A stretch of 64,000 bases of DNA from an uncultured bacterium (GTDB taxonomy: Bacteria; Patescibacteriota; Minisyncoccia; Moranbacterales; UBA2206): NCBI GenBank assembly GCA_903937035.1, contig CAIZXS010000001.1, positions 3,247 through 67,246 on the forward strand, in the 5' to 3' direction. Positions within the stretch are counted from its first letter, which is position 1. Every line of letters starts with the position of its first letter. Below are positions 3,914 through 43,402 of this stretch, piece by piece. The translations under genes and the position numbers were made by a program. The notes below the pieces were generated by a model. That model was not told the DNA's origin. It saw only the letters and a program-made list of their open reading frames with translations, and ran no database searches.

Positions 3914-5089
3914 TTATTTCATTAACTTGCCCAACTTCAACTTCACCGAATTAGCAAAACTCATCATATCCGAATCAAAGGTATATTTAAATTTATTTTT
4001 TTCTCCGTGCCGCTCAACTGCAAAATCGATTAGTTTTTTCAAAAGTTCATTGAGCTCAAGGCCACTGGCTTTCCAGAGATGATGATAGACCGTGCCTGGC
4101 ATTGGATTAATCTCATTGGCATAGACTTTTTTTGCCACTTTGTCATAGAGAAAGTCCACTCGCGCAATGCCACTCGCTCCCACGCCTGAGTATATTTCCT
4201 TAGCCAACTCTTGCACATTTTTTGTCGTATCCGTATCCAGTCTTGCTGGAATCACCAAGCTATTCGTCGCATTGCCCAACTGCGCGCCGCCATCGACCAG
4301 ATATTTTTCCTTGAAATCAAACAGCTCACTTTCGAAAACTGATTCTTGAATGAGCGATGCCTCGAGCTCGTCATTACCGATAACACAACAAGTAATATCC
4401 ATCAAATTCTCCACTCCATCTTCCACCAAAACTTTCTCACCATAATGCAAGGCGACCTCAATTGCAAATTCCAACTCCTTGTCATCTTTCGCTTTGGAAA
4501 TTCCAATTGATGATCCGAGCTTCGGCGGTTTCACGAACAACGGATAGCGCAAAGTATTTTTGATGTTAGCAATAATTTCCGTTCGGTTCTTATCCCAATC
4601 CTTTTTGCTAAAAAACATAAAATTGGCCGTGGCAGTTCCCGTGCTCTTGTAATAGGTTTTGGTAAGAATTTTGTCATAGGCAATGGCCGAAGACGCGACG
4701 TCACAACCGACATATGGGAGATTGCAAAGCTCAAACATGCCCTGAATCGTGCCATCCTCACCATTGGATCCATGAAAAGCCGGAAAGGCTAAATCGATTT
4801 CAATTGATTTGGCCATAAGACCTTTCTTTTGAAAAACCATCTTCCCCTGAGATTTTTCCAGGTCTAGCGAGACTTTGGAAAACTCCAAAAGCTTCTTGTC
4901 TTTCTGGTGATCTTGAAAAAATTTTAACGTTCCCAGCTCCTGCGAAATATACCACTCGCCATTTTTTCCCAAGTATATCGGCACAACATTATGTTGCATT
5001 TTTTTCAACTCTGAGATGACGAGTTGTCCCGTGATAATCGAAACGTCATGCTCCGGACTTTTGCCTCCAAAAAATACTCCGATGTTCAT
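3914..5089 (-). CDS. ddl: D-alanine--D-alanine ligase
   Basis: N-terminal IGVFFGGKSPEHDVS and ATP-grasp motifs (EYEL-like ESELFDFKEKY, Ddl C-terminal region); 391 aa. Confidence 0.85.
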   Translation of the reverse strand: MNIGVFFGGKSPEHDVSIITGQLVISELKKMQHNVVPIYLGKNGEWYISQELGTLKFFQDHQKDKKLLEFSKVSLDLEKSQGKMVFQKKGLMAKSIEIDLAFPAFHGSNGEDGTIQGMFELCNLPYVGCDVASSAIAYDKILTKTYYKSTGTATANFMFFSKKDWDKNRTEIIANIKNTLRYPLFVKPPKLGSSIGISKAKDDKELEFAIEVALHYGEKVLVEDGVENLMDITCCVIGNDELEASLIQESVFESELFDFKEKYLVDGGAQLGNATNSLVIPARLDTDTTKNVQELAKEIYSGVGASGIARVDFLYDKVAKKVYANEINPMPGTVYHHLWKASGLELNELLKKLIDFAVERHGEKNKFKYTFDSDMMSFANSVKLKLGKLMK

Positions 5090-10412: not shown

Positions 10413-10554
10413 AAAAGTTCCTCTAGGCCAATTAACTCCTACCTTAATAAATTATACCAGCAGCCAGATTATCCTGCAAACTTTCAATTAAACACAAAAA
10501 AAATAGCCCCGATTGCTCGGGACTACTTTTTTATCCACTAAGGGAAAAGAAATA

Positions 10555-10878
10555 CTAGTATCTCTTTGCTCCGCGGAAACCACCGTCATTGCCACCTGGC
10601 TTTCGGAAACCACCAGTTCTTGGTCTTTCCTCCATTGGGCGAGCTTCGTTAACAGTCAAAGTTCTTCCTTCGAACTCTTTTCCGTCAAACATTTCGACAG
10701 CTTTCCCAGCTTCTTCATCAGAAGACATTTCAACAAAACCGAAACCTTTTGAACGACCAGACATTTTATCAGTGATGATAATTGCTGATGTAACGGCTCC
10801 AGCTTGAGAAAAATAATCCTTCAAGCCTTCTTGTGTTGTACTGTAGGAAAGTCCTCCTACGTATAATTTTTGTGCCAT
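10555..10878 (-). CDS. RNA-binding protein with RRM domain and glycine-rich tail
   Basis: RNP-2 (LYVGGL) and RNP-1 (KGFGFVEM) motifs, then a GG/R-rich tail. Confidence 0.85.
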   Translation of the reverse strand: MAQKLYVGGLSYSTTQEGLKDYFSQAGAVTSAIIITDKMSGRSKGFGFVEMSSDEEAGKAVEMFDGKEFEGRTLTVNEARPMEERPRTGGFRKPGGNDGGFRGAKRY

Positions 10879-11159
10879 GTTTTTTGCCTTATACTTAATT
10901 ATCTTGCAAGCCGACCTTCTCTTTTAGCTTACTTCTCTTTGAAACTAACGTTTCAAGATCTTTTTCCTTAGATTCACATATAAGGCAAAACCTGCTGAGA
11001 AAACTTACAATAGAACTAGTATACACCAGAATGAGAAAAAAATCAAGTGACTAGAGCCTTTGGAGCGCGCTTAGTACTTTTGGCTCTAAAGGCTGATAAA
11101 TTGCATCTTTTAAAAAACAATTCGAATATTGTACGACTTGTGCATTTGCCAAAGAAAAG

Positions 11160-11777
11160 TTAATTTTTTTCAATCCAGCTCCCGAAAACCTCCAAAAAAC
11201 CTTTGAAATTTTCCTGCTCTATCACCCATAACTCTTTCTCATCAAATTCCAGATAGGATTTCCCTCCCTTAACTGGAGACATGATTGCTGACATCGGATA
11301 ACCAGTCGTCTTTCTTTTGGAAAATTTCTCCACCGCATAGGAAACTTGCCTGACGAGACAAGAACCCTTAGCTGAATTTTCGGGATTAAAAAAAGCAGCG
11401 GCAAAATTCCAGATAAATTCTTTGTTCTTTTGAGGATATTGCGCATATATTTTTTTCCAAACATCAATCACCTCCCGATCAGTTAATTCTTTTTTGTTCC
11501 CACCAAATCTGCGCACATACACTCCAGGTTGTTCATTCTCTGGCAAAAAATTAGTCGTCACAGCTTCATCAATTGCCAGTGTTATTTTCCCCGACATCTT
11601 TCCATAAGCAACCGCCTTATGCATTGCATTTTCACTGTTCGTTTCAAAAATCTCATCCACTTTTTCTGTAATTCCCAAATTCAAAAGCGACACTGCGCGA
11701 ATTCCAGCGATACCTTCAATCAGTCGTTTATACCTCCCCAATTTTGCCAAATTATGTGTGGCGATTAATATCTCCAT
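11160..11777 (-). CDS. non-canonical purine NTP pyrophosphatase (Ham1/RdgB family)
   Basis: Collinear similarity to RdgB: ILIATHNLAKL (cf. VLATGNVGK), TLAIDEAV (cf. AIADDSGL), GYPMSAIMSPVKGGKSY (cf. GFGYDPIFFVPSEGKT). Confidence 0.55.
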   Translation of the reverse strand: MEILIATHNLAKLGRYKRLIEGIAGIRAVSLLNLGITEKVDEIFETNSENAMHKAVAYGKMSGKITLAIDEAVTTNFLPENEQPGVYVRRFGGNKKELTDREVIDVWKKIYAQYPQKNKEFIWNFAAAFFNPENSAKGSCLVRQVSYAVEKFSKRKTTGYPMSAIMSPVKGGKSYLEFDEKELWVIEQENFKGFLEVFGSWIEKN

Positions 11778-11926
11778 ATAAAATAATATTATTCTTTGCT
11801 TAGCTTAAATTAACACAATCAAAGCTCAAAATCAATTTTGTGATTTTCTAAATTTTGCAAAATAAAGCCCCGCCAATCCTCATAGGATAACGGGGCGCCC
11901 TGAAATATCAGTCAACCTAAATAATT

Positions 11927-15203: not shown

Positions 15204-15275
15204 TCCGCGATAGCTCAATGGTAGAGCAGTTGACTGTTAATCAATTGGTTCCAGGTTCGAGTCCTGGTCGCGGAG
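15204..15275 (+). tRNA. tRNA-Asn (anticodon GTT)
   Basis: Cloverleaf with acceptor stem TCCGCGA/TCGCGGA, D-arm TAGCTCAATGGTAGAGCA, anticodon loop CTGTTAA and T-arm GGTTCGAGTCC. CCA is not encoded. Confidence 0.85.
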
Positions 15276-26658: not shown

Positions 26659-28038
26659 TTATTTTTCAGCTCTCTGGCGAATGTCTTCGAAAGAGTATTC
26701 GCGCATGAGCTGCCCATCTTCGAAAACCACCCTGAGCTGGTCTTCACCGGGAACATTTTCCGCTACAGTTTCATAGCGTCCAGCGTTCTTCAAAAGCTTC
26801 ATTCTTCCCGCCTTGGAGCGTTTTTCCGGATCCGTGATAGGATCTTTCATTACTTGCCTTCTCTCACCGTTGACTTTAACTTCCGAACATTTGATCGCAA
26901 ATTTTGAAGTATCACGATTTACTTTCTGCAAAAGTCCCCCGCCTGAACCAAAGGCAATGTTGTCTGCTGACCAACTATTGTTTTTAAGTGCAAGGAGGAT
27001 GGGTCGCAAAGTTTCTCGGTCAATTCCGTCACCTTGAATCACGCGCACCTTGGGATTTAAAAGCTTATAGCCTTTTGCATTTAATTCGAAACCGAAAGCA
27101 TCTCCCAAGATTGCAAACATTTGCGGCAACACCTCTGTTGGCTCGCCAGAGTCAGGACGAACCACGAGCACTCCATCACGCTCCAAGATTTTGTCGCGCA
27201 ACGCCTGCCCCCAGATATTCTGACAAGCATTAAAAATGTCATAGGAATCGGAAACAACAGCGACAAGTCCTGCGGGAAATTGATCGAGCATATTTTCATA
27301 AGCTGCCCTTTCATTTGATTTTCCCCAGGCTGTAATCGTGCTGTGTTCGGCTGCCGGAATAGAAAAACCGGCCATGGTTTCGGAATAATAATCCCGTGCC
27401 ACTAAGATGCCAGCGAGCGTATCGCTACCTTTGAAATTAACCAAGTGCGCCGCGCCGCCAATGCCGGCCGATTCATCAGATGTTGATCCGCGATAGCCGA
27501 AATCATGCAATTTGAAATCAATCAATTCAGGACTTCCCGTTTCTTCCAAAAATTCCCGAATTATTTTTTTCATATAATAACTCTGCGTGGCAACCGTCGT
27601 AGGATACCAGACCTGAAGGATGAGCGTTTCCAGATAATTGGTGAGCCAAGGCAATTGCGGATCAGTGTTTTCCATTGTAAGAAGCACATTACCAGTCGGG
27701 ATTCGCAAACCTTCCGCGACAGCTTTGATGCGCACAGGGAGACATCCTCCGTGTTCATCGACGATTCTTTGCCAACCGGCTTCGTTGAATATCTCACTGG
27801 AACCGAAATGTGCGGTAAAAAATTCTCGTGCTTCAAAAATGTCAGCTTGAGTCACCACTTGCCCGACAAGATAGCGCTTGAGGATATACTGCAATCCGAA
27901 AAATAATGTTTCGGGGAAAATGCCACCGCGGCTTTCCAGGAAGGAATAGACACTTCTCGTCCCTTGTGGATATTGCTTCCAGTGGGAAACCTTGTAGCTA
28001 TCAGTAGCCAAAATTGGATTCATTCTTGTTTTGTTCAT
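26659..28038 (-). CDS. nadV: nicotinamide phosphoribosyltransferase (NAMPT)
   Basis: N-terminal NPILATDSYKVSHWKQYP is the NAMPT hallmark; 459 aa; strong SD AAGGAGAACC upstream. Confidence 0.85.
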   Translation of the reverse strand: MNKTRMNPILATDSYKVSHWKQYPQGTRSVYSFLESRGGIFPETLFFGLQYILKRYLVGQVVTQADIFEAREFFTAHFGSSEIFNEAGWQRIVDEHGGCLPVRIKAVAEGLRIPTGNVLLTMENTDPQLPWLTNYLETLILQVWYPTTVATQSYYMKKIIREFLEETGSPELIDFKLHDFGYRGSTSDESAGIGGAAHLVNFKGSDTLAGILVARDYYSETMAGFSIPAAEHSTITAWGKSNERAAYENMLDQFPAGLVAVVSDSYDIFNACQNIWGQALRDKILERDGVLVVRPDSGEPTEVLPQMFAILGDAFGFELNAKGYKLLNPKVRVIQGDGIDRETLRPILLALKNNSWSADNIAFGSGGGLLQKVNRDTSKFAIKCSEVKVNGERRQVMKDPITDPEKRSKAGRMKLLKNAGRYETVAENVPGEDQLRVVFEDGQLMREYSFEDIRQRAEK

Positions 28039-28059
28039 TTGGTTCTCCTTTCCTCTTTA

Positions 28060-28950
28060 TTATTGAATGCTTGAGAGATGTGAAAGCAACTCTTCAGCTA
28101 GTCGTTTATGTTCTTTGATTACCACTTTCTTGCAATCCCAAATAGGGATCCAAGCCAACTCATCGATATCGTCTCCAGCACATTCCCTACCACAGAGTTT
28201 ATAGGTGACAAAAAAAGCTGTCATAACTCTATCCTCTTCTGCTCGGTAGCGATAATCTGAAACACGCCAAGAACCGAGATAAGTGAAATTATGACAATCA
28301 ATAGGGCCGGCTTCTTCCCTCAATTCACGATGCGCCGCCATTTCAAGCGAATCGTCAGCTGGGTCAACAAATCCACCAATAAAACGATACTTTTCTCCGT
28401 CGATCTTTTTTCGCCCCATCAACACGGCTTGATCCTCATGTCGCACGACAGCAATGTCCACTGTCTGAAATGAAATTGGAAAGCGTTTATTCTGAGCATA
28501 GATGATACCAGAGACAAATTGCTTGTCCGCCGTGACAGCGCCGTTAACTTTTTTCCGCATAACCGTTCCTGATGGCACAGTCATTTTGGGAACAGTAACG
28601 ACCGGATATTTTCCTGAATAATATGGAATAAAACTATCACGCGAACCAAAGAGCGAAGCCATATAGTCCGGAAAATTTTCTCCAATAATTTGATCCACAC
28701 TGTCTGACCATCTTGCATCTGATGGGTTATCCGGCAATGCGATAATCATAGCCTCAGGAAAGGCCTTTTTTAACATCATCTTACGAATTGCGAAATCTAA
28801 TGGATTTCGCTTACTTGGCATGGCCTGCGTCACTCCAACAAGAATTAGCAGTGCATCCGCCTTTTCGCACGCGTAGTTTATGAGATAGAGGTGCCCCGCA
28901 TGGAGCTCCGGCACTTGAAAACGTCCAATAATCACACTTAAATTTTTCAT
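28060..28950 (-). CDS. nadM: bifunctional NMN adenylyltransferase / Nudix (ADP-ribose) pyrophosphatase
   Basis: N-terminal nucleotidyltransferase motif GRFQVPELHAGH and a C-terminal Nudix box GGFVDPADDSLEMAAHRELREEAG, as in Synechocystis/Francisella NadM-Nudix. Confidence 0.8.
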   Translation of the reverse strand: MKNLSVIIGRFQVPELHAGHLYLINYACEKADALLILVGVTQAMPSKRNPLDFAIRKMMLKKAFPEAMIIALPDNPSDARWSDSVDQIIGENFPDYMASLFGSRDSFIPYYSGKYPVVTVPKMTVPSGTVMRKKVNGAVTADKQFVSGIIYAQNKRFPISFQTVDIAVVRHEDQAVLMGRKKIDGEKYRFIGGFVDPADDSLEMAAHRELREEAGPIDCHNFTYLGSWRVSDYRYRAEEDRVMTAFFVTYKLCGRECAGDDIDELAWIPIWDCKKVVIKEHKRLAEELLSHLSSIQ

Positions 28951-29007
28951 AGAATTATCCTTTCTTCTAATTAATTGTCAAGGTTCTGCTCCCTTCCTCT
29001 GCCTTAA

Positions 29008-29219
29008 TCGCCAGAGTTTACTGGATTGTGTAATTTATACACTAAGTAGGTAAAAATAATAAACACTTGCGTGTTCCCAGTCAGGTCCTCCTAATCTAGC
29101 TTTTTATGCGCTTTCGGATCAATAAATATAATTATCCGGCTCATAAAAAACGCTTCTTAAAAAAGTCCCCTCTTCTTCTCACCTACCAGCGGTTTTAAAT
29201 TACTAAGTGTAGTTTACAC
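29008..29219. promoter_or_regulatory. candidate NrtR operator palindromes in the nrtR / nadM-nadV divergent intergenic region
   Basis: GTGTA-ATTTA-TACAC at 29008-29022 and GTGTA-GTT-TACAC at 29207-29219, both followed by ACTAAGT-like sequence. Located between divergent nrtR and nadM. Confidence 0.35.
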
Positions 29220-29296
29220 AATAACTAAATATTTGTCAATAGCCTCCTCCGAAGTGTGATTGACCAACCCAAATTAATAGTGTTATTATAGTTGCA

Positions 29297-29983
29297 ATGA
29301 AACACAAAACGAACAATTTAGGCGAACCAAAAAAGACCCCAGCCGTGGCGGTCGATACTTTGATTTTTTCTGTTATTGATAACAAATTAAAGATTCTTCT
29401 TATAAAAATCCTCGGTGGGGCGTATAAAAATAAATGGGCCATTCCGGGTGGACTCGTGGACACCAATGAGTCTCTTGAAAAGGCCGCTTCACGGATACTC
29501 TCGCAAAAAGCCGGCGTCGATGGAATTTACCTCGAACAGCTAGCTACTTTTGGCGACCCCAAAAGAGATTCGCGCGGGCACAGTGTGTCTGTCGCCTATT
29601 TCGCATTAGTCAATGACAAATTATTCTATCCAAAAACGACGGAATACTATGCAGACATCGCCTGGAAAAATGTGGACACCCTTCCGACAATGGCTTTTGA
29701 TCACAAAAAAATCATTGAGTATGGCAAAGAACGTTTAATGAGCAAACTCGCCTATTCAAACATCGCCTACGCCCTACTCCCCAAAGAATTCACACTGACG
29801 GAACTTCAATCTGTCTATGAAGCCGTGCTTGGCAAAGTTCTAGACAAGCGAAATTTTCGCAAGAAAGTTCAAGAAATTAAACTAGTAAAAGAAACTACGC
29901 GCACAAGACAACTAGGAGCAAACCGCCCCGCAAAGCTTTTCATTTTCACACAAAGACATCCAAGGATTATGGACATACTATGA
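29297..29983 (+). CDS. nrtR: Nudix-related transcriptional regulator of NAD metabolism
   Basis: N-terminal degenerate Nudix box (GGLVDTNESLEKAASRILSQKAG; REx2EE degenerated to RIx2QK) plus a C-terminal NrtR-type winged helix (FTLTELQSVYEAVLGKVLDKRNFRKK). Confidence 0.8.
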   Translation: MKHKTNNLGEPKKTPAVAVDTLIFSVIDNKLKILLIKILGGAYKNKWAIPGGLVDTNESLEKAASRILSQKAGVDGIYLEQLATFGDPKRDSRGHSVSVAYFALVNDKLFYPKTTEYYADIAWKNVDTLPTMAFDHKKIIEYGKERLMSKLAYSNIAYALLPKEFTLTELQSVYEAVLGKVLDKRNFRKKVQEIKLVKETTRTRQLGANRPAKLFIFTQRHPRIMDIL

Positions 29984-33752: not shown

Positions 33753-33789
33753 AGCCTCACACAGTAAAGCACATTCACAAAATAGACAA

Positions 33790-33830
33790 ACAAAAAACTC
33801 TCGAAGCCCTAAAGCCCGAGAGTTTTTTTA
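33790..33830. terminator. bidirectional terminator (serves csp on the minus strand)
   Basis: Stem AACTCTCG/CGAGAGTT flanked by an A-run on one side and a T-run on the other. Confidence 0.6.
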
Positions 33831-33847
33831 AAGTTTACCTAAGATAC

Positions 33848-34045
33848 TTAGGCGCGCTTAACGTTGATTGCATTCAAACCCTTTGGGGATTCTTCTGAAT
33901 CAAAAGAAACTTGGTCACCTTCTTGGATTTCGTCAAATGTAACGTCAACCAAAGAATTGCTGTGGAAGAATAAATCCTTACCCAATTCTGGAGAAGTGAT
34001 GAAACCGAAACCTTTGTCAGTTTTTTTCTTTATTGTACCGATCAT
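33848..34045 (-). CDS. cspA: cold-shock protein
   Basis: Cold-shock domain with RNP motifs KGFGFI and VFFHS-like (LFFHSN). Confidence 0.9.
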   Translation of the reverse strand: MIGTIKKKTDKGFGFITSPELGKDLFFHSNSLVDVTFDEIQEGDQVSFDSEESPKGLNAINVKRA

Positions 34046-34285
34046 ACTTTTTTCGTTTGTAATTAATAACCTCGTGTATTGCGTGAAGCTCGACGACTTT
34101 TCACTTCTCTTAGCTTAGCACACAACACAAGTTTGGTCAATGACTAACGCAAACTAAACTTAATCCCATTTTAAGCTCAGTTTAGGACTCAAATAGGCCA
34201 GATTCCTATTTGTACAGTCCTCACATTTTAAAATAGAAAAGAGATGAATGAAAAACTCATAGTTTCATAGCATGACTACATGATA

Positions 34286-34294
34286 TGCTATAAT
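34286..34294 (+). promoter_or_regulatory. extended -10 promoter element (TGCTATAAT) upstream of the pilB-like gene
   Basis: TGnTATAAT lies 35 nt upstream of the ATG at 34329. Confidence 0.4.
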
Positions 34295-34328
34295 ATTAAA
34301 ATAAGTACAATTTAAATATCAAAACAAT

Positions 34329-35531
34329 ATGGACACGCCAGAAAAAGAAAAGACCGCAAAAGAACTGACGCCAACTGAGGCAATCAATGTCATCATCCAA
34401 GAGGCTTTCCTCGCCGGAGCTTCCGACATTCATATAGAACCGCTTAAAGATAAGGTTAGAATCCGCTTTAGAATAAACGGAGACATTATAGACACACAAA
34501 CAATATCGACCGAGAAAGCTTCGCTCATATTTAATTCACTGAAAGTCATGGCTAACCTCCCCTATCAGACATCAGAGCTGCCTGAGGATGGACATTTTTC
34601 AGCCGATTTTCTTAATTCTGAAAATAAATACGAGAACGTCGATATTCGACTTTCCGTTTTTCCCACGATAAACGGAAGCGCCGTTGTTTTGCGAATTCTT
34701 AACCGCGCAGAAATCCTACTCTCCATGAAAGATCTTGGCATGAGCAATGATGACCTCATAAAACTCAAGCGTCTTTCTATGCGAGGCTATGGTATGATCC
34801 TCATAAACGGTCCTGTTGGTTCCGGAAAAACAACAACCATGTATTCAATCATCCTAGAACTTAGCCAGCACGATAACAAAAAAAATATCATCACACTGGA
34901 AGATCCAATCGAATATAATTTTGAATTCATCCGTCAAAGTCAGATAAAATCAGAAATCGGCTTCACCTTTGCAGAAGGAATGAAAGCCATTCTTCGCCAA
35001 GACCCAGATGTTATTATGATTGGCGAAATTCGTGATCCTGAAACCGCTGCCTATGCTGTGGGGGCGGCTCTCTCTGGAAGAAGCGTTTTCTCCACAATCC
35101 ATGCTAACTCCGCAATAGGCACTCTAGCTCGACTTGTTGATTTGAAAATTGAACGTGGGCTCATCTGCTATGTCCTCAATGGAACAATCGCACAAAGGCT
35201 TGTGAAAAAAATTTGTCCAGCGTGCAAGCAAGATGACACTCCGCCACTTGAATTCATCCACATGCTCGGACTAGAAAATGAACGCGTCAATTACAAAAAA
35301 GGGGCTGGCTGTCCAAAATGTAAAAATACGGGCTTCATTGGCAGAACAGGAATTTTTGAAATTTTGGAATTTAATGATGAAATAAGGTCGGCTATCATTG
35401 AAAAAAATCCCATCAGTGAGATAATTTCAATTGCCAGAAAATCTGGCTTTAAAACGCTCCTTGAAGATGCTGTCAATAAAATAAGAGAAGGCGAAACAAC
35501 AGTCGAAGAAGTGATAAAAATAGTTTTATAG
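34329..35531 (+). CDS. type II secretion / type IV pilus assembly ATPase (GspE/PilB family, short form)
   Basis: Walker A GPVGSGKTTT, Asp box, His box and C-terminal tetracysteine CPACx(n)CPKC; 400 aa, lacking the N1 domain. Confidence 0.8.
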   Translation: MDTPEKEKTAKELTPTEAINVIIQEAFLAGASDIHIEPLKDKVRIRFRINGDIIDTQTISTEKASLIFNSLKVMANLPYQTSELPEDGHFSADFLNSENKYENVDIRLSVFPTINGSAVVLRILNRAEILLSMKDLGMSNDDLIKLKRLSMRGYGMILINGPVGSGKTTTMYSIILELSQHDNKKNIITLEDPIEYNFEFIRQSQIKSEIGFTFAEGMKAILRQDPDVIMIGEIRDPETAAYAVGAALSGRSVFSTIHANSAIGTLARLVDLKIERGLICYVLNGTIAQRLVKKICPACKQDDTPPLEFIHMLGLENERVNYKKGAGCPKCKNTGFIGRTGIFEILEFNDEIRSAIIEKNPISEIISIARKSGFKTLLEDAVNKIREGETTVEEVIKIVL

Positions 35532-35553
35532 AGCCATCCATCCTCTCTACATT

Positions 35554-35592
35554 AAAAGTCCCCCTGGTTACTTTGACCAGTGGGACTTTTAA
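35554..35592 (+). terminator. rho-independent terminator
   Basis: Stem AAAAGTCCC...GGGACTTTT with an inner CTGGT/ACCAG helix. Confidence 0.55.
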
Positions 35593-35643
35593 GTTATCGC
35601 CAATTAATAACATAGATGGAACATTTAAAATTAATATGCTAGA

Positions 35644-38082
35644 ATGGAAAACATGGAAATTAGCAAAAAATTAGCCAAAAATAGACGTTGGGATATATTG
35701 GGGATTGGCAGTCCCCTGCTTGACATTGTCATAAATATTAATGAGGAAATGCTCAAAAGCCTTGCGCTCAAAAAAGGCTCCATGAACCTGATTACCAAAA
35801 AAGAAGGCCAAGCCATCCTCAAAAAATTTGACCATAAAAAGCAAAGATTGGCACTAGGTGGAAGCGCATCAAATACACTTTTGGGCGCGAGTCTTCTAGG
35901 GAGTTCTGTCTCTTTTTTGGGAATGACCGGAAAGGATGCGCATGGAAAAATGTACAAAGAAAAAATAGAAAAAGAGGGAGTTTTCACACACCTTTCCGAG
36001 CATGCTAGCGACGCAACGGGGCATGTCATCATCCTCATCACACCAGACGGAGAAAGAACCATGCTACCTCATCTGGGGGCAGCGCTTAATTTTGCCAAAG
36101 AACATATCCGCGAAGATGAAATCAAAAACAGTAAAATTTTACATATTGAAGCATATCAGTTGGAAAATGAAGCAAGTCGGCACGCAGTTTTACACGCAGT
36201 AAAAATTGCAAAAAATAACCAAACGCTAGTTTCACTTGATCTTTCCGACACAGGACTGATTAAAAGAAACAAGGATCTTTTTAAATATTTTGTAAAAGAG
36301 CATATCGATATCGTATTTGCAAATGAAGATGAGGCGATGGAATTTTCTAGTAAAAACGACGCGCGCGCAGCTCTGCATGATATAGCGGGAATTTGTACTA
36401 TTGCAGTGGTCAAATTAGGCGCTAAGGGAAGCTTAATTAAAGAGGGTCAAAAAGTTTTTGAGATTGATCCATGCCCAGTAGACATGATAAATACCAATGG
36501 CGCGGGAGATATGTACGCAGCGGGAATCCTGCATGGCCTAATTAACAACCTAAACATGCAGACTGCGGGAGAAATGGCTAGCCACCTGTCAGCCCTGGTC
36601 GTCTCGAGTGTTGGCGCACAACTAGATAAGATACATCTTAAGTCAATTAATAAATATAAGAATATGAAAATGGAAAAAGAACTGGATTACAAAATTAGTG
36701 ACATGAGTCTCGCAGAATATGGACGAAAAGAAATTATCATTGCGGAAAAAGAAATGCCCGGCCTCATGGCTCTGCGAAAAAAATTTAGCAAAATTAAGCC
36801 ACTGAAAGATGCGCGAATTTTGGGAAGTTTACACATGACCATTCAAACCGCAGTTCTCATTGAAACTCTTGTCGAGCTTGGAGCTCAAGTGCGCTGGGTA
36901 TCTTGTAACATTTTTTCTACCCAGGACCACGCGGCGGCGGCGATTGCAAAGGCAGGAATTCCTGTTTTTGCTTGGAAAGGTGAAACACTGGAAGAATATT
37001 GGTGGTGCACAGAGCAAGCCTTTAAGTTCAAAGGTAACAAGGGACCAAATTTAATTGTCGATGATGGAAGCGACGCGACACTCATGCTTCATCTTGGAGT
37101 AGAAATCGAAAAAGATCCAAAAATTCTCAAAAAAGATTATTCCAAAAAAGGTGAGGATGAAAAAGAGCTGATGAAAATTCTTGCAAGAATCCACAAAGAA
37201 AATCCAATCTTTTGGAGCAAAATCATCAAAGATGTTAAAGGTGTTTCAGAAGAAACAACCACGGGCGTGCACCGACTCTATCAAATGTTTGAGCAAAAAA
37301 GACTCCTCTTCCCCGCCATCAACGTGAATGACTCAGTCACAAAAAGCAAATTTGATAATCTCTATGGTTGCCGAGAAAGCTTGGCTGACGGAATCAAGCG
37401 TGGAACAGATGTAATGGTGGCCGGAAAAGTTGTAGTTGTTTGTGGTTATGGTGATGTGGGAAAAGGTTGCGCGGGAAGCATGAAAGGCTTTGGCGCGCGC
37501 GTCATCATCACTGAAATCGACCCTATTTGCGCCTTGCAAGCTGCTATGGAGGGATTCGCAGTAAAAACAATTGAAGAGACTCTTTTTGAAGGAGACATTT
37601 TCGTGACCACAACTGGCAACCGAGATATCATCACAATAGCGCATATGGAGAAAATGAAAGATGAAGCGATTGTATGCAATATTGGACACTTTGATAATGA
37701 AATTCAAGTTGAAAAATTGGAAAAATATAAAGGCATCAAAGAAATCAACATCAAGCCTCAGGTGGACAAATTTGTCTTTCCTGATGGACACGCCATTGTA
37801 CTGCTTTCAAGAGGACGCTTGGTGAATCTGGGAAATGCGACTGGTCATCCAAGTTTTGTAATGAGCGCGTCTTTTACCAATCAAGTCCTAGCGCAAATGG
37901 AACTTTGGGAAAATAAATATGCAATTGGTGTTTATACTTTGCCAAAAAAATTAGACGAAGAAGTCGCGCGACTGCACTTAAAAAAGCTTGGCGTATCTTT
38001 GACAAAACTAACCAAGCTTCAAGCTGACTATATTAATGTGCCAACGGAAGGTCCCTATAAAGCAGAGCGTTATCGTTATTAA
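35644..38082 (+). CDS. ahcY: adenosine kinase (PfkB family) fused in-frame to S-adenosyl-L-homocysteine hydrolase
   Basis: Residues 1-~335 match adenosine kinase: [12 protein letters not shown], the GG dipeptide (ALGGSASN) and anion hole [14 protein letters not shown]. Residues ~340-812 are a complete SAHH: [33 protein letters not shown]-binding [14 protein letters not shown] and C-terminal YRY. The reading frame is continuous with no stop between the halves. Confidence 0.85.
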
Positions 38083-38163
38083 AATTCTGCTTGAAAAACT
38101 ATTTCGTATTTATTTATTTTTATGCTATAATAAATAGGAAATAAAAAACTTATTCTTTCGTCA

Positions 38164-41100
38164 ATGCTAGAGCTTGCCCTGCAATTATTTAGGGGTCAAA
38201 AAAAATGTATACGCAAATTGCTTTTGCTTGTTTTTTTGTTTTCTTTTTTTGCAATTTCTCGCGAAGCAAGTGCTGCTCCCAGCACTGACTCACTTTTGGG
38301 TTATTGGAGATTTGATGGAAATGCCAATGATTTAAGTGAAGATGGAACAACTGGACAACTCGAAGGACCAACAACTTATAGCACCGTTTCCCCTGCTTCT
38401 GGGTCAGCATGCTTAAGCCTTACTGGTATCGATAGCTTTGTGTCTTTCGCGAATCAACCTGATATAACACCATCCTCGGAACTGACTCTTTCTTTCTGGC
38501 TTAATTTACCAAACTACCCAACGGCATCAACAATAATTGCTGGAAATTATTTGGCTTCATATCCAACTAAAGGCTTCTTTTTTACCATAGACCCTTCTAA
38601 TGTTTCATTTTCAATTGGAGACGGAAGCTCAATTCATAGTGTTGTCCGCCCAATAACAGAGATCCCTACCGGGACCTGGGTACTACTCACAGGCACTTGG
38701 AATGGAACAACTTTAAAATTATATAAAAACGCCGAACCCGCCATTAGCTCCGCATCCGGCTCTATAATGTACCCCCCGGGAACACTTTTTCAAGTCGGCA
38801 ATTTCACCGGTAAAATGGATGAGATGCGGTTATACAATCGCGCACTCTCACCAGAAGAAATTGCGGTTTTGACTTCTAAGCAACATCTAACAGCGACCTG
38901 GAATGGAAGTGTTAACTCCTCTTATGAAAACAAAAGCAACTGGACACCGAATGCCGTCCCAGATCCATATTCCCTCGTCACAATAAATAGCGGGACTTAC
39001 CAGCCGGAATTTACATCGGGAACAGCCGAATATATGGCTGGACTGACTATAAACAGCAACGCTTCCTTGGATTTGCATGATTCCAACCTAACTATCAATG
39101 ATTCCGGAATTTTTAATAACAACGGCACGCTAAGCTTAGATAATACGTCCCTTCAACTTCTATCCGGCTTTTCAAATGACATTGACAGCGGAACAATTAA
39201 GATCAACAGCCCGGCAAGTGTCACTGGTCTAAAAACTGGACCCAATTATTATAACCTCACAATCAATGCCGCAACATCAACTACATTAACGCTGGGAGCA
39301 ACAACCACCATCCATGGCAACTTAAACCTAGAAAATGGAAAACTAGACGTTATCCATTCTTCGCCAGACTATGGAATAATTCTTTACGGAAACTGGAATA
39401 GCAGCTCCGTTGACAATTTCAATCCCAGACAAGGCACAGTCTCTCTCGTTGGTACCGACCAGGCGATTAATGGCTCCAATCATTTTTACAATCTCAGTAA
39501 AACCACCTCAACTGCAAACACGCTAACTTTTCAAGCTGGCACAACTCAAAATATCGTCGGCACATTAACTCTTCAGGGAGAGGGGTTAGGAATAGATACG
39601 AACACAAATTTATTATCCTTGCGCTCCTCAGCTACTGATGGGTCAGTCTGGAATATCTATCCTTCGCAGAGTAGCGTAGGTGCTGTTGATGTCAAAGATA
39701 GCACAAACCTAGGGACCACAATTATACTACAAGGTCGCAATGTTAACTCAGGCAATAATACCAACTGGGCATTCGATACCACCCCACCCGTGCTAAGCCT
39801 TTCTGCCGTTGCAACGCCAACTTCAAATAACTTGCAACCAATAACTGGAACGGCTTCGGAAGCCGATGGAACCAATACGACTATCCGCTCTGTTGAATTT
39901 CAAATGGAAACCACTGGCGGCACATGGACAGCCTGCACTGCGGATAATGGTACTTTCAACACTACGACCGAAGCGTTCACCTGCACGCCTGAAGCCCCCC
40001 TACCAGAAGGCCAACACACAATGTACGTCAAGGCAACCGACATAAACAACAACATAACAACACCAAGCACCGCAAGCTTTACAGTTGATGCTTACCACAC
40101 ACTAACTTACACTGCGGGGGCTAATGGAACAATCGCTAGTTCGGGCGGAACAACAGTGGCAAATATCAACACACAAACTATTGCACATAGCACTAATGGC
40201 GCAGCCGTAACAGCTACTCCAAACACGGGTTACCACTTTGCCGGTTGGGATGATAGCAATTCAGAAAACCCCAGGACCGATTCCAACGTCACCGCAGATA
40301 AATCAGTTACGGCTAATTTTGTCATTAACACATACACCGTCACATTTAACAAAACATCTGGCACAACTGATGCTAGTCCCCTGACTAAAACTGCTGACTA
40401 TAATACTTCTGTCACTTCCCTGCCTTCTGCTCCAACCAAGACTGGCTACACATTTGCTGGATGGAATACGATTACTGATGGTTCTGGCACAGCTTTTACT
40501 ACTAGCTCTTCAGTTACAGGAGATATTACGGTTTATGCGCAATGGACCATCAATAATTACACCGTCACATTTAACAAAACATCTGGCACAACTGATGCTA
40601 GTCCCCTGACTAAAACTGCTGACTATAATACTTCTGTCACTTCCCTACCTTCTGCTCCAACCAAGACTGGCTACACATTTGCTGGATGGAATACGATTAC
40701 TGATGGTTCTGGCACAGCTTTTACTACTAGCTCTTCAGTTACAGGAGATATTACGGTTTATGCGCAATGGACGGCCAACACTCACACATTAACCTACACT
40801 GCGGGAGCCAATGGAACAATCACGGGCTCAGCCTCTCAAACCATAAGCCTCGGCGCTTCCGGGACAGCAGTCAGTGCTACAGCCAATGCCAATTATCACT
40901 TTGTCAATTGGAGTGACGGATCAACAGCGAACCCCAGAACAGACACAAATGTGACAAGCAATGTCACAGTGATTGCTAATTTTACACCAAACACGTTCAC
41001 CCTTAAATATAAATGTGACGAGAATGGAAAATTGGATGGCGACACCACGCAAACAATCAAATACAAGGAAGATGGCTCTAAGGTTGAAGCCAAACCAGAT

Positions 41101-42252
41101 ACGGGGTATAAATTCAAAAAATGGAGTGATGGTTCTGATGATGATTCGAGAAAAGATGAAAATATTGATGAAGACCTAACAGTAACAGCCGAGTTTGAAA
41201 AAGAGGAATATACCCTCAAATATGAAGCTGGATCACATGGCAGCATCAATGGCGATACAGAGCAAAAAGTTAAGTACAAAGAAGATGGAGAAGAAATCGT
41301 TGCCGTTCCTGATAATGGTTACCGCTTCTCAGGTTGGAGTGACGGGAAAAATGAAAGAGTCAGAACTGATAACGATATTAAGGAAAATCTCACACTAAGT
41401 GCTAGCTTTGCGCCAGATACAGCTCCAGGCTCCGATGAGTCAAAAACCACCACCCCGCCACCAACCGAAACACCCATCCCGGAGAAAACAACGCCTGCTA
41501 AAATTGACTACAATGGAGAAACTACCCCGAACTGGCAAAGTACCCATTTTGGAGCATCCTTCTGCTATGATGCAACTAAGTGTGGTGGCGCAGCGGACCC
41601 AGACGGCGATGGAATCAGCAACAGTGAAGAATTTAGACTAGGCACAAATCCAACTAAAGCCGACAGTGACCAAGATGGAATTTCCGATAAAACTGAAATT
41701 GAAGAAGGTCATAGCCCAACCAAATCGTCCAAAAACAATAGTGACGACAAGATCAAATTTGAAGACCCAAAAGAAAAAGGTGAAACGAAAAAAGATACGT
41801 ATAGAGTCGATAAGGTAGAATTGGTTTCCTCGGCTGACGGAAAAAAACATCTCAAACTTACTGGAAAGGGATTGCCGAATAGATTTGTCACGGTCTATAT
41901 CCACAGCGATCCAATCGTCCTGACAGTTGAGACAGATGCTGATGGAAATTGGTCCTACACCCTAAACAAAGAATTGGAAAATGGTGACCATGAAGTTTAT
42001 GTCGCTATGACTGATAGCAGCGGAAAAATTTCTGAAAAAAGTGAACCACTAGCGTTCATAAAGACGGCTGAAGCTGTGACCATCATTCCTCCAGCCCAGG
42101 CTGCTGCTGCCAATCGAGCAAAGTCCCCTGTAGAAGCTGGGTACCAAAAAAACCTAATCCTTTCTATCGTTATTGGTATTGGCGGACTACTTCTCGCCAT
42201 CATTACTATCGGATTCATCAAGCACAGAAAAAATGAAAATCGAATAGCCTAA
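38164..42252 (+). CDS. giant surface protein: signal peptide, LamG/ConA-like domain, multiple Listeria-Bacteroides-type repeats, TSP3-like Ca-binding repeats, C-terminal TM anchor
   Basis: N-terminal signal peptide; LamG_3 hallmark ending MDEMRLYNRALSPEEI; about six repeats of the TGYxFxGW...W type; DPDGDGISNSEEF/DSDQDGISDKTEIE; C-terminal TM helix followed by KHRKNENR. Confidence 0.8.
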   Translation: MLELALQLFRGQKKCIRKLLLLVFLFSFFAISREASAAPSTDSLLGYWRFDGNANDLSEDGTTGQLEGPTTYSTVSPASGSACLSLTGIDSFVSFANQPDITPSSELTLSFWLNLPNYPTASTIIAGNYLASYPTKGFFFTIDPSNVSFSIGDGSSIHSVVRPITEIPTGTWVLLTGTWNGTTLKLYKNAEPAISSASGSIMYPPGTLFQVGNFTGKMDEMRLYNRALSPEEIAVLTSKQHLTATWNGSVNSSYENKSNWTPNAVPDPYSLVTINSGTYQPEFTSGTAEYMAGLTINSNASLDLHDSNLTINDSGIFNNNGTLSLDNTSLQLLSGFSNDIDSGTIKINSPASVTGLKTGPNYYNLTINAATSTTLTLGATTTIHGNLNLENGKLDVIHSSPDYGIILYGNWNSSSVDNFNPRQGTVSLVGTDQAINGSNHFYNLSKTTSTANTLTFQAGTTQNIVGTLTLQGEGLGIDTNTNLLSLRSSATDGSVWNIYPSQSSVGAVDVKDSTNLGTTIILQGRNVNSGNNTNWAFDTTPPVLSLSAVATPTSNNLQPITGTASEADGTNTTIRSVEFQMETTGGTWTACTADNGTFNTTTEAFTCTPEAPLPEGQHTMYVKATDINNNITTPSTASFTVDAYHTLTYTAGANGTIASSGGTTVANINTQTIAHSTNGAAVTATPNTGYHFAGWDDSNSENPRTDSNVTADKSVTANFVINTYTVTFNKTSGTTDASPLTKTADYNTSVTSLPSAPTKTGYTFAGWNTITDGSGTAFTTSSSVTGDITVYAQWTINNYTVTFNKTSGTTDASPLTKTADYNTSVTSLPSAPTKTGYTFAGWNTITDGSGTAFTTSSSVTGDITVYAQWTANTHTLTYTAGANGTITGSASQTISLGASGTAVSATANANYHFVNWSDGSTANPRTDTNVTSNVTVIANFTPNTFTLKYKCDENGKLDGDTTQTIKYKEDGSKVEAKPDTGYKFKKWSDGSDDDSRKDENIDEDLTVTAEFEKEEYTLKYEAGSHGSINGDTEQKVKYKEDGEEIVAVPDNGYRFSGWSDGKNERVRTDNDIKENLTLSASFAPDTAPGSDESKTTTPPPTETPIPEKTTPAKIDYNGETTPNWQSTHFGASFCYDATKCGGAADPDGDGISNSEEFRLGTNPTKADSDQDGISDKTEIEEGHSPTKSSKNNSDDKIKFEDPKEKGETKKDTYRVDKVELVSSADGKKHLKLTGKGLPNRFVTVYIHSDPIVLTVETDADGNWSYTLNKELENGDHEVYVAMTDSSGKISEKSEPLAFIKTAEAVTIIPPAQAAAANRAKSPVEAGYQKNLILSIVIGIGGLLLAIITIGFIKHRKNENRIA
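40326..40775 (+). repeat. near-perfect tandem duplication, 2 x 225 bp (75-aa repeat) inside the surface protein gene
   Basis: Copies at about 40326-40550 and 40551-40775 are identical except for a few bases at the copy start and one silent change. They encode ...YTVTFNKTSGTTDASPLTKTADYNTSVTSLPSAPTKTGYTFAGWNTITDGSGTAFTTSSSVTGDITVYAQWT twice. Confidence 0.9.
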
Positions 42253-42394: not shown

Positions 42395-43402
42395 ATGCAC
42401 GATGACTTTAAATTACCTCTAGTCAATGCTCACACTCACGCCGCAATGATCGCTTTTCGCGGTCTTGCCGAAGACATGCCACTTCAAAAATGGCTCGAGG
42501 AATACATTTGGCCAGCAGAAAAACAAAGCGTAACGGCTGAATTTGTCTACGCTAAAACCAGAGAAGCCATTCTTGAAATGCAAAAAAATGGCATCAAAGT
42601 TTTCTGTGATATGTATTTTTTTGAAGACGAAGTAGCCCGAGCAGCCAAGGAATTAGGAATGCACGCACTCATTGGAGAAGCAATCCTGGATTTCCCCACG
42701 CCTTCAGCCAAAAATCCTGAAGAGGCTTTTGAAATCACAAAAAAACTTCTAACAAAATATGCCAATGACCCGCTAATAAAAGTGGCGGTCGCTCCCCACT
42801 CGATCTATACAGTTTGCCGAAAAAACTTGCTCAAAGCAAAGGAATTAGCAGAAGAATATAATGCCCCACTGCATATTCACCTCGCAGAAACCAAGCTAGA
42901 ATTTGATGATTGTCTGGAAAAAAATAATCTAACTCCAATCGCCTATCTAGATGAACTTGGCCTCCTGAGCGAAAAATCCATCCTAGCACATTGCGTCTGG
43001 ATAACCGATGAAGATATTGAAATTATGGCAGAGAAAAAAGTCAATGTCGTCCACTGCCCACTGAGCAATCTAAAACTTGGATCAGGAATCGCGCCAGTCA
43101 TAAAAATGCTAGAAAGCGGGATCAATGTCTGCTTGGGAACAGATAGCGCGGCCAGCTCTAATCGACTCGATATCTGGGAAGCAGGCAAATTCGCCGCACT
43201 CTTGCAAAAAGGTGTAAGCCTTGATTCAAGTAAAATCTCGACCAAAGATGTAGTGAAAATGATGACCGTAAACGGCCTCAAAGCTTTGGGGTTTTCTGAA
43301 ATTGATGGCAGAAAAATAACAGAAATGGAAGCAAGGATCAAAAGCACTGATAATTACAACCTCATTTATACATTAAATTCAAATGAGCTTAATTTCAAAT
43401 AA
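42395..43402 (+). CDS. amidohydrolase of the MTA/SAH (adenosine-type) deaminase family, N-terminally short
   Basis: Metal-binding HxH (VNAHTHAAM), HIHLAET, HCPLSN and GTDSAAS motifs typical of MtaD/TM0936-like deaminases. At 335 aa it lacks about 50 N-terminal residues of the canonical beta-sandwich domain. Confidence 0.6.
   Translation: MHDDFKLPLVNAHTHAAMIAFRGLAEDMPLQKWLEEYIWPAEKQSVTAEFVYAKTREAILEMQKNGIKVFCDMYFFEDEVARAAKELGMHALIGEAILDFPTPSAKNPEEAFEITKKLLTKYANDPLIKVAVAPHSIYTVCRKNLLKAKELAEEYNAPLHIHLAETKLEFDDCLEKNNLTPIAYLDELGLLSEKSILAHCVWITDEDIEIMAEKKVNVVHCPLSNLKLGSGIAPVIKMLESGINVCLGTDSAASSNRLDIWEAGKFAALLQKGVSLDSSKISTKDVVKMMTVNGLKALGFSEIDGRKITEMEARIKSTDNYNLIYTLNSNELNFK

Follow-up and report, generated by a model that had tools for sequence, protein, structure and literature searches.

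Does a single bacterial gene encode both the hydrolase of S-adenosyl-L-homocysteine (SAHH, or AhcY) and a kinase for the adenosine that it releases, and what would a covalent link between the two enzymes achieve? This question is raised by adoK-ahcY, a gene on the plus strand of a 64-kb window (the whole stretch of DNA analysed) from a bacterium of the Candidate Phyla Radiation (CPR), in which an adenosine kinase (ADK)-like half is followed in frame by an AhcY half. The initial annotation had read this gene as an uninterrupted in-frame fusion in a reduced genome, as a Rosetta-stone link between the two activities and as a device for direct channelling of adenosine. The host is indeed a reduced-genome CPR bacterium (Moraniibacteriota), and we put the probability at about 80% that the gene encodes a bifunctional ADK-SAHH that arose by merger of two neighbouring genes, that it converts S-adenosylhomocysteine (SAH) into homocysteine plus AMP, and that the benefit of the link lies in co-expression and co-localisation of the two enzymes.

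Domain structure and active-site motifs of the fused gene

The gene is a single open reading frame (ORF) at 35644..38082 (+), with an ATG start, 812 codons and no internal stop, exactly where and as long as the initial annotation had placed it. A Pfam search of the 812-aa translation matched all three expected domains, PfkB (PF00294; aa 65-327, E-value 5e-49, 167.6 bits against a cutoff of 25.8), AdoHcyase (PF05221; aa 348-811, 5.6e-145, 482.5 bits) and AdoHcyase_NAD (PF00670; aa 572-734, 1.5e-81, 272.7 bits), while the NCBIfam equivalog model for ahcY, TIGR00936, scored 617.1 bits versus a cutoff of 497.6 (aa 349-804). These E-values are far beyond chance. The PfkB match bears out the assignment of the N-terminal half to the ribokinase family, the TIGR00936 score supports the claim of a full AhcY in the C-terminal part, and the proposed division into some 335 kinase and 470 AhcY residues can be refined to aa 1-340 and aa 348-812, as listed here. 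The GC content of the locus is the same as that of the remaining window.

35644..38082, plus strand: fused gene adoK-ahcY, complete, 812 codons plus stop (ORF list, Pfam, NCBIfam)
35644..36663, plus strand: adenosine-kinase-type PfkB half, aa 1-340 (PfkB 5e-49), ending in the native C-terminal helix '...SINKYKN'
36664..36684, plus strand: seven-residue linker MKMEKEL, aa 341-347, in frame, with relic ATG start codons of ahcY at 36664 and 36670
36685..38079, plus strand: complete long-form S-adenosyl-L-homocysteine hydrolase half, aa 348-812 (PF05221, PF00670, TIGR00936)

In the kinase half, the ADK hallmarks noted in the initial annotation are intact as far as the ribose-binding and catalytic motifs are concerned: the D27, GGSxxN, NxxE and GAGD motifs are invariant in fused and stand-alone kinase homologues, as is the G72-G73 dipeptide. 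Conservation is given for alignments A2, A3 (the 36 fused proteins) and A4.

35707..35724, plus strand: GSPLLD motif with D27, which is invariant in A2, A3 and A4
35857..35874, plus strand: GGSASN motif (GG dipeptide, S74, N77) of the substrate pocket; G72, S74 and N77 invariant or nearly so
36322..36333, plus strand: NxxE motif N227-E-D-E230, Mg/phosphate site; N227 and E230 invariant in A2, A3 and A4
36490..36510, plus strand: NTNGAGD anion hole with the catalytic base D289; T284, G286, A287, G288 and D289 invariant in 36/36 fused proteins

We take D27 to be the ribose 2'/3'-OH-binding Asp of ADK/ribokinase-type kinases, and D27 and N77 to be the equivalents of D18 and N68 of human ADK; since both residues are common to ribokinases, they show a ribosyl substrate rather than adenine specificity. 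The closest PDB sequences are those of Rhizobium etli 4e3a (7e-43) and Sinorhizobium 3ubo, an 'adenosine kinase' (7e-41), followed by ADKs of Toxoplasma, human, plants and trypanosomes (1e-15 to 1e-18). An AlphaFold2 (AF2) model of the kinase half alone is of high confidence, with a predicted local distance difference test score (pLDDT) of 94 and a predicted template modelling score (pTM) of 0.92. In Foldseek comparisons its template modelling score (TM) was 0.89-0.93 to 4e3a/3ubo and 0.78-0.86 to ~25 solved ADK chains, almost all of the next ~30 matches after the rhizobial ones being solved ADKs, with ribokinases (0.70-0.72) and 2-keto-3-deoxygluconate (KDG) kinases ranked lower. By sequence and fold, the kinase half thus resembles an adenosine kinase, and its predicted specificity is weighed below.

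The AhcY half is 85-91% identical to the 470-aa AhcY proteins of Moranbacteria, and its catalytic, NAD-binding and C-terminal tail residues are all intact, as predicted for a SAH hydrolase.

36832..36846, plus strand: nucleobase fingerprint H397-M-T-I-Q401 (HxTxQ); H, M and T invariant in A3
37339..37371, plus strand: catalytic segment with K567, D571 and C576, all three invariant in A3
37444..37467, plus strand: GxGxxG Rossmann motif GYGDVGKG, aa 601-608, inside AdoHcyase_NAD, invariant in A3
38050..38079, plus strand: C-terminal tail, aa 803-812; K806, Y810 and Y812 invariant in A3

A3 shows no variation at H397, D474, E537, K567, D571, H682 and H735, which we take to correspond to human H55, D131, E156, K186, D190, H301 and H353, respectively; likewise, K567, D571 and C576 presumably correspond to human K186, D190 and C195. 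We further take K806 and Y810 to extend into the adjacent subunit's NAD site, as is established for SAHH tetramers.

Recurrence of the fusion and its origin from neighbouring genes

A search of 5.8 billion protein clusters for the same architecture, PF00294 together with PF05221, returned 47 clusters from NCBI, JGI, ENA and Logan. Complete members are ~790-830 aa long, and identities are 54-100%. No clusters beyond the 47 emerged when a profile of 36 fused proteins was used for searching, and a search with the kinase half added one more partial fused protein, which brings the total to ~48 clusters, distributed over CPR bacteria and DPANN archaea. Eight contigs (NCBI, JGI, Logan and ENA) carry a protein identical to that of the window (812 aa, P0121). 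At the DNA level, eight loci among the matches listed were verified as one ORF, and the fused frame is intact in L001, L007, L009, L087/88, L089/90, L091/92 and L093, a set of loci from unrelated studies. One of these, a Moraniibacteriota metagenome-assembled genome (MAG) from another study (L007), is collinear with window positions 33788-40065 at 83% nucleotide identity with the junction intact. The ratio of nonsynonymous to synonymous substitutions (dN/dS) between the window and L007 is 0.081 for the kinase and 0.009 for the AhcY half, and between L001 and L009 it is 0.061 and 0.029, both comparisons of fused genes being made at dS 0.4-0.6. Both halves are therefore under purifying selection in the fused state and, because the clusters recur, the DNA loci are independent and selection acts on both halves, the fusion is real and not an artefact.

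In the databases the fused proteins are labelled only 'adenosylhomocysteinase'. Some entries of the type 'AhcY, 470 aa' are fused ORFs that were called from the relic Met (for example P0041 in L001), and P0222, listed as stand-alone, is a frameshifted or truncated fused gene. A search of the 50%-identity representatives with the kinase half recovered 1,246 stand-alone kinase representatives at E<=1e-30; this library is of no use for counting fusions, apparently because fused proteins are not separate representatives in it. Scans of genome and metagenome contigs with the kinase alignment returned mostly distant kinases among the matches listed, and they provide examples (including L007-L009, L017, L079, L093 and L096) rather than an unbiased census of fused, adjacent and separate genes. 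One partial fused protein is labelled 'Desulfobulbaceae bacterium' (P0035, HBG19028.1) and falls into a 90%-identity cluster with HCU71151.1 of Moranbacteria; it probably stems from a mis-binned contig and not from a proteobacterial occurrence.

How the fused gene was born can be read from its unfused relatives. In unfused Moranbacteria the kinase gene lies directly 5' of ahcY on the same strand, either with a 72-nt spacer between them (L002), with the kinase TAA abutting the ahcY ATG (TAAATG; L003-L006), or with the kinase stop ~23 nt inside ahcY in another frame (L008, and P0146 and P0148 as judged from their C-termini). The ancestral state of Moranbacteria is thus shown to be a pair of genes on one strand, with the kinase preceding ahcY, and the claim of a Rosetta-stone link holds because this pair is adjacent and conserved in unfused relatives. 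Stand-alone kinases end in a '...LDKKHxxxIxKYK' helix, and the same helix precedes the junction in the window. The fused genes of the window, L001, L007 and L009 are devoid of the ~37-nt spacer that holds the stop codon and a Shine-Dalgarno (SD)-like AAGG/AGGG motif, whereas unfused L002 and L003 carry AGGG or AAGG at -9 and -7 before the ahcY start; no SD-like motif was found before the relic Met in the window, L001, L007, L009, L093 and L087. The old ahcY initiator is kept as M341/M343 in the window protein. Since unfused pairs are spaced, abutting or overlapping and the window lacks both spacer and SD-like motif, these comparisons show that either a small deletion or a frame change of one nucleotide in the kinase-ahcY unit gave birth to the fusion. 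This event removed the stop codon of the kinase gene together with the spacer and the ribosome-binding site of ahcY, and left the start Met as an internal residue.

Two side observations concern the flanks of this unit. The spacer that is deleted in fused genes is conserved among unfused Moranbacteria genomes (L002 3928-4000; L003/L004 ~3955-4000) and contains the short palindromes TCTTATTATAAGA and AAGATTCAAATCTT ahead of the SD-like AAGG, which may form a regulatory hairpin. In the fused Moraniibacteriota loci L001 (35-292) and L009 (ORF 253-2907), the frame is open for ~85 codons 5' of the kinase start, giving an 883-aa ORF whose extension matches DUF3135 (1.8e-15); this could be a triple DUF3135-kinase-AhcY arrangement or an upstream small gene without its stop codon.

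The fusion does not appear to have been made only once. Moranbacteria share an ultra-short linker (I-x-KYK-x-M), other fused groups have different linkers of 10-50 residues, and the linkers of the fused proteins fall into 6-10 non-homologous classes. In L089 the linker retains a perfect AAGGAGG before the relic Met and is therefore a read-through intergenic spacer. Fused and stand-alone kinases interleave in a neighbour-joining (NJ) tree, on which the Fitch minimum is 22 fused/unfused changes; this number is an upper bound because of weakly supported nodes and artefactual splits such as P0222, and multiple origins are indicated more conservatively by the linker classes. Because the linkers of different lineages are unrelated, the sequences point to CPR bacteria and DPANN archaea having fused the two genes independently several times. 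The gene contexts of P0032 (ribosomal proteins S19e and L31e, GatD/E) and of P0047 (adjoining a Cbf5-type pseudouridine synthase and TrmB) are archaeal, and NCBI labels relatives as Pacearchaeota or 'archaeon'. Transfer from CPR bacteria to DPANN archaea, considered in view of the 72-79% cross-domain identity of AhcY, was rejected, as AhcY is equally similar to the enzymes of Bacteroidota and Spirochaetota.

Outside these groups, the kinase-then-ahcY adjacency was seen, among the matches listed, in a Lentisphaerae genome and in ~8/80 distant metagenomic kinase loci, and in Bacteroidales, Spirochaetes and others the kinase is unlinked to ahcY. The kinase is N-terminal in 47/47 fused proteins, and no AhcY-first fusion was found among the 47 fused clusters. 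As a separate observation, the two genes are adjacent and unfused in reversed order, ahcY then kinase, in a Nanoarchaeota MAG (L017 2057-4478, JAUSJN010000070.1). Another concerns the Pacearchaeota locus L087 (GCA_002688875.1), where a PNP_UDP_1 nucleoside phosphorylase/nucleosidase domain is fused to a phosphoribosyltransferase domain (426 aa, 10535-11815) directly 3' of the ADK-AhcY fusion, a second purine-salvage Rosetta stone; a divergent gene for an RsmB/F-type S-adenosylmethionine (SAM) methyltransferase lies upstream.

Proposed function of the covalent link and alternative readings

From the conserved residues, the fused enzyme is predicted to convert SAH to homocysteine plus AMP. The AhcY half would split SAH, which arises as an inhibitory by-product in every SAM-dependent methylation, to give homocysteine and adenosine, and the kinase half would phosphorylate the released adenosine to AMP with ATP. 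Removal of adenosine would stop the reversible SAHH from running back to SAH and relieve the inhibition of methyltransferases, and the adenosyl group would return to the nucleotide pool. It is known that the SAHH equilibrium lies on the side of SAH and that ADK pulls the reaction by removing adenosine (PMC8190896), and SAHH and ADK interact in plants (PMC7367456). The return of the adenosyl group matters for a group often incapable of de novo nucleotide synthesis, CPR bacteria often being without it (PMC7304191).

The most likely benefit of the link is that the two enzymes are obligatorily co-expressed at 1:1 and that the SAHH tetramer has four kinase domains co-localised on it, where the tethered kinases would deplete adenosine locally. 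By analogy with SAHH structures, the N-terminal position of the kinase may leave the C-terminal tail of AhcY free for the NAD site of the neighbouring subunit. Direct channelling, as the initial annotation had proposed, is not supported: in the full-length AF2 model of the monomer both domains are folded (mean pLDDT 84.5), the linker is of low confidence (pLDDT < 50 at aa 343-349) and pTM is 0.47. With such a pTM and a disordered linker no fixed inter-domain interface is predicted. A sealed tunnel between the active sites is unlikely.

Besides this low pTM, several observations weigh against a bifunctional ADK-SAHH that benefits from its covalent link. The kinase half falls below every NCBIfam equivalog cutoff, with no ADK model among its matches, and E. 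coli guanosine kinase (TM 0.81) is structurally about as near to it as are eukaryotic ADKs. Among the ~26 window proteins scanned, which cover about half of the window, we found neither metK, methionine synthase or adenylate kinase nor any other methyl-cycle or purine-salvage partner. Finally, a one-nucleotide frame change suffices to fuse an overlapping pair and close relatives thrive unfused, so the fusion is mutationally cheap and the link could be nearly neutral.

This last point underlies the alternative that survives best, although we regard it as doubtful: the fusion would be real and bifunctional but selectively near-neutral, a by-product of packed, overlapping operon genes that brings no kinetic or channelling gain and that would come and go through single-nucleotide changes. 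The coexistence of spaced, abutting, overlapping and fused forms among close Moranbacteria, the single nucleotide that separates the overlapping from the fused form, the interleaving of fused and unfused states in the kinase tree, the missing fixed interface in the AF2 model and the small number of fused clusters (~48 versus thousands of AhcY clusters) are all in keeping with it. A neutral fusion fits poorly, however, with a fused frame that is kept across dS 0.4-0.6 under strong purifying selection, with recurrence through unrelated linkers in CPR bacteria and DPANN archaea, with an orientation that is always kinase-N/AhcY-C, and with the loss of the internal ribosome-binding site in short-linker lineages, which makes the cell dependent on the fused product. 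At the opposite end lies a tentative reading of the same data in which the fusion serves as an adaptive metabolon: it would have arisen convergently at least 5-6 times, in CPR bacteria as well as DPANN archaea that live as ultra-small episymbionts auxotrophic for purines, and would be their only means of retaining the adenine spent in methylation. If so, the four kinase domains borne by the SAHH tetramer would trap adenosine where it is released, SAH hydrolysis would become effectively irreversible, and the adenosyl cycle would be closed from ATP via SAM, SAH and adenosine to AMP.

An unlikely alternative is that the N-terminal half is a nucleoside or sugar kinase of other specificity (inosine/guanosine, ribose or a keto-deoxy sugar), so that the coupling would differ. 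Apart from the proximity to guanosine kinase, this would agree with the curated models, as the best NCBIfam matches (iolC, ribokinase and Gsk) are all far below their cutoffs, and with the rhizobial top match 4e3a having been deposited as 'probable sugar kinase'. Yet the nearest named solved structures are overwhelmingly ADKs, the AF2 models place helices at aa 34-38 and 52-61 in the lid region as in ADKs, the stand-alone orthologues in Moranbacteria, Parcubacteria, Falkowbacteria, Woesearchaeota and Pacearchaeota carry the name 'adenosine kinase' from the NCBI Prokaryotic Genome Annotation Pipeline (PGAP), and the linkage and fusion to the adenosine-releasing enzyme are conserved. A kinase of the same clade is moreover fused to a PNP_UDP_1 nucleoside phosphorylase domain (P0283, 598 aa). 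Because no equivalog cutoff is reached and guanosine kinase is structurally near, the specificity for adenosine is a prediction from homology, naming and gene linkage. Two further fusions occur in this kinase clade, one to a CYTH domain (P0394, 483 aa) and one to a mannose-6-phosphate-isomerase C-terminal/cupin domain (P0361, 443 aa).

It also seems improbable that the gene yields chiefly two products, with internal initiation at Met341/Met343 giving free AhcY and the fusion protein being minor. While the Met at the old AhcY start is kept in almost all fused proteins, gene callers often choose it (as in P0041 and P0136) and the long-linker loci L089 and L091 retain SD-like motifs before it, the short-linker genes point the other way: the window, L001, L007, L009, L093 and L087 are without the SD-like motif that unfused L002 and L003 have, and the motif-bearing spacer is deleted in the window. 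Short-linker genes, having lost the internal ribosome-binding site, are thus unlikely to give rise to free AhcY.

Highly improbable, in turn, is the idea that the C-terminal half is an S-inosyl-L-homocysteine (SIH) hydrolase acting after a SAH deaminase, with the kinase acting on inosine. This route, which is known in some archaea and Thermotoga (PMC10978960), was considered because a truncated-looking TRZ/ATZ (MtaD/DadD-like) amidohydrolase is encoded 4 kb downstream (42395-43402), and it was rejected on the fingerprint of the AhcY half, HMTIQ: according to the same source HxTxE/Q marks SAH-preferring enzymes and HxExK S-inosylhomocysteine hydrolases, so that the AhcY half is predicted to be of the SAH-preferring type. 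In addition, this half is of the long bacterial/plant form with TIGR00936 above its cutoff, and the amidohydrolase is below all curated cutoffs, non-adjacent and unlinked to the fusion in other loci. Lastly, a sequencing or assembly artefact, by which an indel in the A-rich junction would have merged two genes, is effectively refuted: the junction is A/T-rich, one base would be enough to merge an overlapping pair and some database entries such as P0222 resemble artefactual splits, but the identical protein on eight contigs from four sources, the intact frame in unrelated studies, the 47-48 clusters of the same architecture and a frame conserved across dS ~0.5 at dN/dS < 0.1 all contradict it.

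Genomic neighbourhood, known systems and significance

The neighbours of the fused gene in the window are genes for a T2SSE ATPase and a giant surface protein, and an NAD-salvage cluster (26659-29983). The surface protein (1362 aa; 38164-42252, plus strand), encoded directly 3' of the fused gene, contains LamG, Flg_new/InlB B-repeat, TSP3 and Big domains; close to its C-terminus lies a hydrophobic segment that probably spans the membrane, and the gene of this protein is conserved in L007. The product of the amidohydrolase gene mentioned above (plus strand) is a 335-aa Amidohydro_1 protein whose best match, TRZ/ATZ (MtaD/DadD-like deaminases of methylthioadenosine (MTA), SAH and 5'-deoxyadenosine), reaches 354 bits versus a cutoff of 540 and covers profile positions 69-362 of 444, seemingly without both canonical termini; it could represent a nucleoside deaminase that is minimal or has decayed. 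A single tRNA (15204-15275, plus strand) is the only Rfam match at the gathering threshold in the window. A promoter-like site lies just upstream of the fused gene, for which the consensus scan is weak evidence, given 11 such sites in the region scanned versus 6.9 +/- 2.7 expected.

35604..35631, plus strand: promoter-like site TTAATA, 16 nt, TAAAAT, 13 nt 5' of the start codon (consensus scan, 9/12 matches)
26659-28038, minus strand: NAMPT-type phosphoribosyltransferase
28060-28950, minus strand: cytidylyltransferase-like plus Nudix protein
29297-29983, plus strand: NrtR-type Nudix/winged-helix regulator

The closest known arrangement is the unfused adoK-ahcY pair of Moranbacteria/Parcubacteria (for example GW2011_GWF2_36_839, GCA_000991855.1; L002-L006 and L008), with the same genes, order and strand, AhcY 85-91% and kinase 60-69% identical to the window and the same C-terminal I-x-KYK helix; it differs by a stop codon and either a 0-72-nt spacer with an SD-like motif or a ~23-nt out-of-frame overlap, whereas the window encodes one polypeptide. 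Stand-alone long-form AhcY (TIGR00936, with a ~40-residue insertion) shares the catalytic and NAD domains, HxTxQ, the catalytic Lys/Asp/His, GxGxxG and the Lys/Tyr tail, to which the window enzyme adds a 340-residue kinase at the N-terminus. With the PfkB adenosine kinases (3UBO, 4E3A, human 1BX4 and T. gondii 1LII), the window kinase has in common the fold (TM 0.78-0.93), the GG, NxxE and GAGD motifs, the ribose-binding Asp and Asn and the helical lid, but identity in structural alignments is 20-28% and the window domain is covalently joined to AhcY. In plants, the associated ADK and SAHH are separate interacting polypeptides, unlike this covalent fusion in a prokaryote. Engineered SAM-regeneration cascades (PMC8190896) follow the same logic, ADK turning adenosine into the mononucleotide and thereby pulling SAHH, yet they are in vitro mixes of separate enzymes from different organisms rather than a natural single chain. 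In Methanocaldococcus and Thermotoga, the DadD/SIHH route converts SAH to SIH and then to inosine plus homocysteine; through its different nucleoside product it likewise makes SAH cleavage effectively irreversible (PMC10978960), but it uses a deaminase and an HxExK hydrolase where the window enzyme has HxTxQ and a kinase partner.

We found no description of an ADK-SAHH fusion in the full-text literature, a scope that covers few of the subscription journals; targeted reading of the archaeal SAHH paper (PMC10978960) and of the CPR metabolic-platform paper (PMC7304191) revealed no such fusion, and in a July-2026 SAHH review the words 'adenosine kinase', 'fusion', 'fused' and 'bifunctional' do not occur. 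The suggestion that the architecture is undescribed in bacteria thus stands insofar as no describing paper was found, and fails insofar as ~48 clusters are already public under the label 'adenosylhomocysteinase'. The architecture is unannotated rather than unseen and not unique to the window genome, and since both enzymes and their coupling are textbook knowledge, the fusion is no new kind of system. The public label overlooks the predicted kinase activity, and gene callers sometimes cut the ORF at the relic Met.

What the fusion offers is natural Rosetta-stone evidence that SAH hydrolysis is coupled to adenosine phosphorylation in prokaryotes as it is in plants and animals; it also provides a functional context for the many PfkB 'sugar kinases' that form a large clade, poorly annotated as yet, in CPR bacteria and DPANN archaea. 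As SAH hydrolysis is said to be the bottleneck of SAM-regeneration biocatalysis (PMC8190896), a single-chain SAHH-ADK could also be of direct use in that application. The spaced, abutting, overlapping and fused series of Moranbacteria gives an unusually clean view of the birth of a bifunctional gene from an operon, and the recurrence of the fusion in reduced-genome symbionts of both domains points to the economy of adenine and of the methyl cycle as a selective pressure in organisms that are often unable to make nucleotides.

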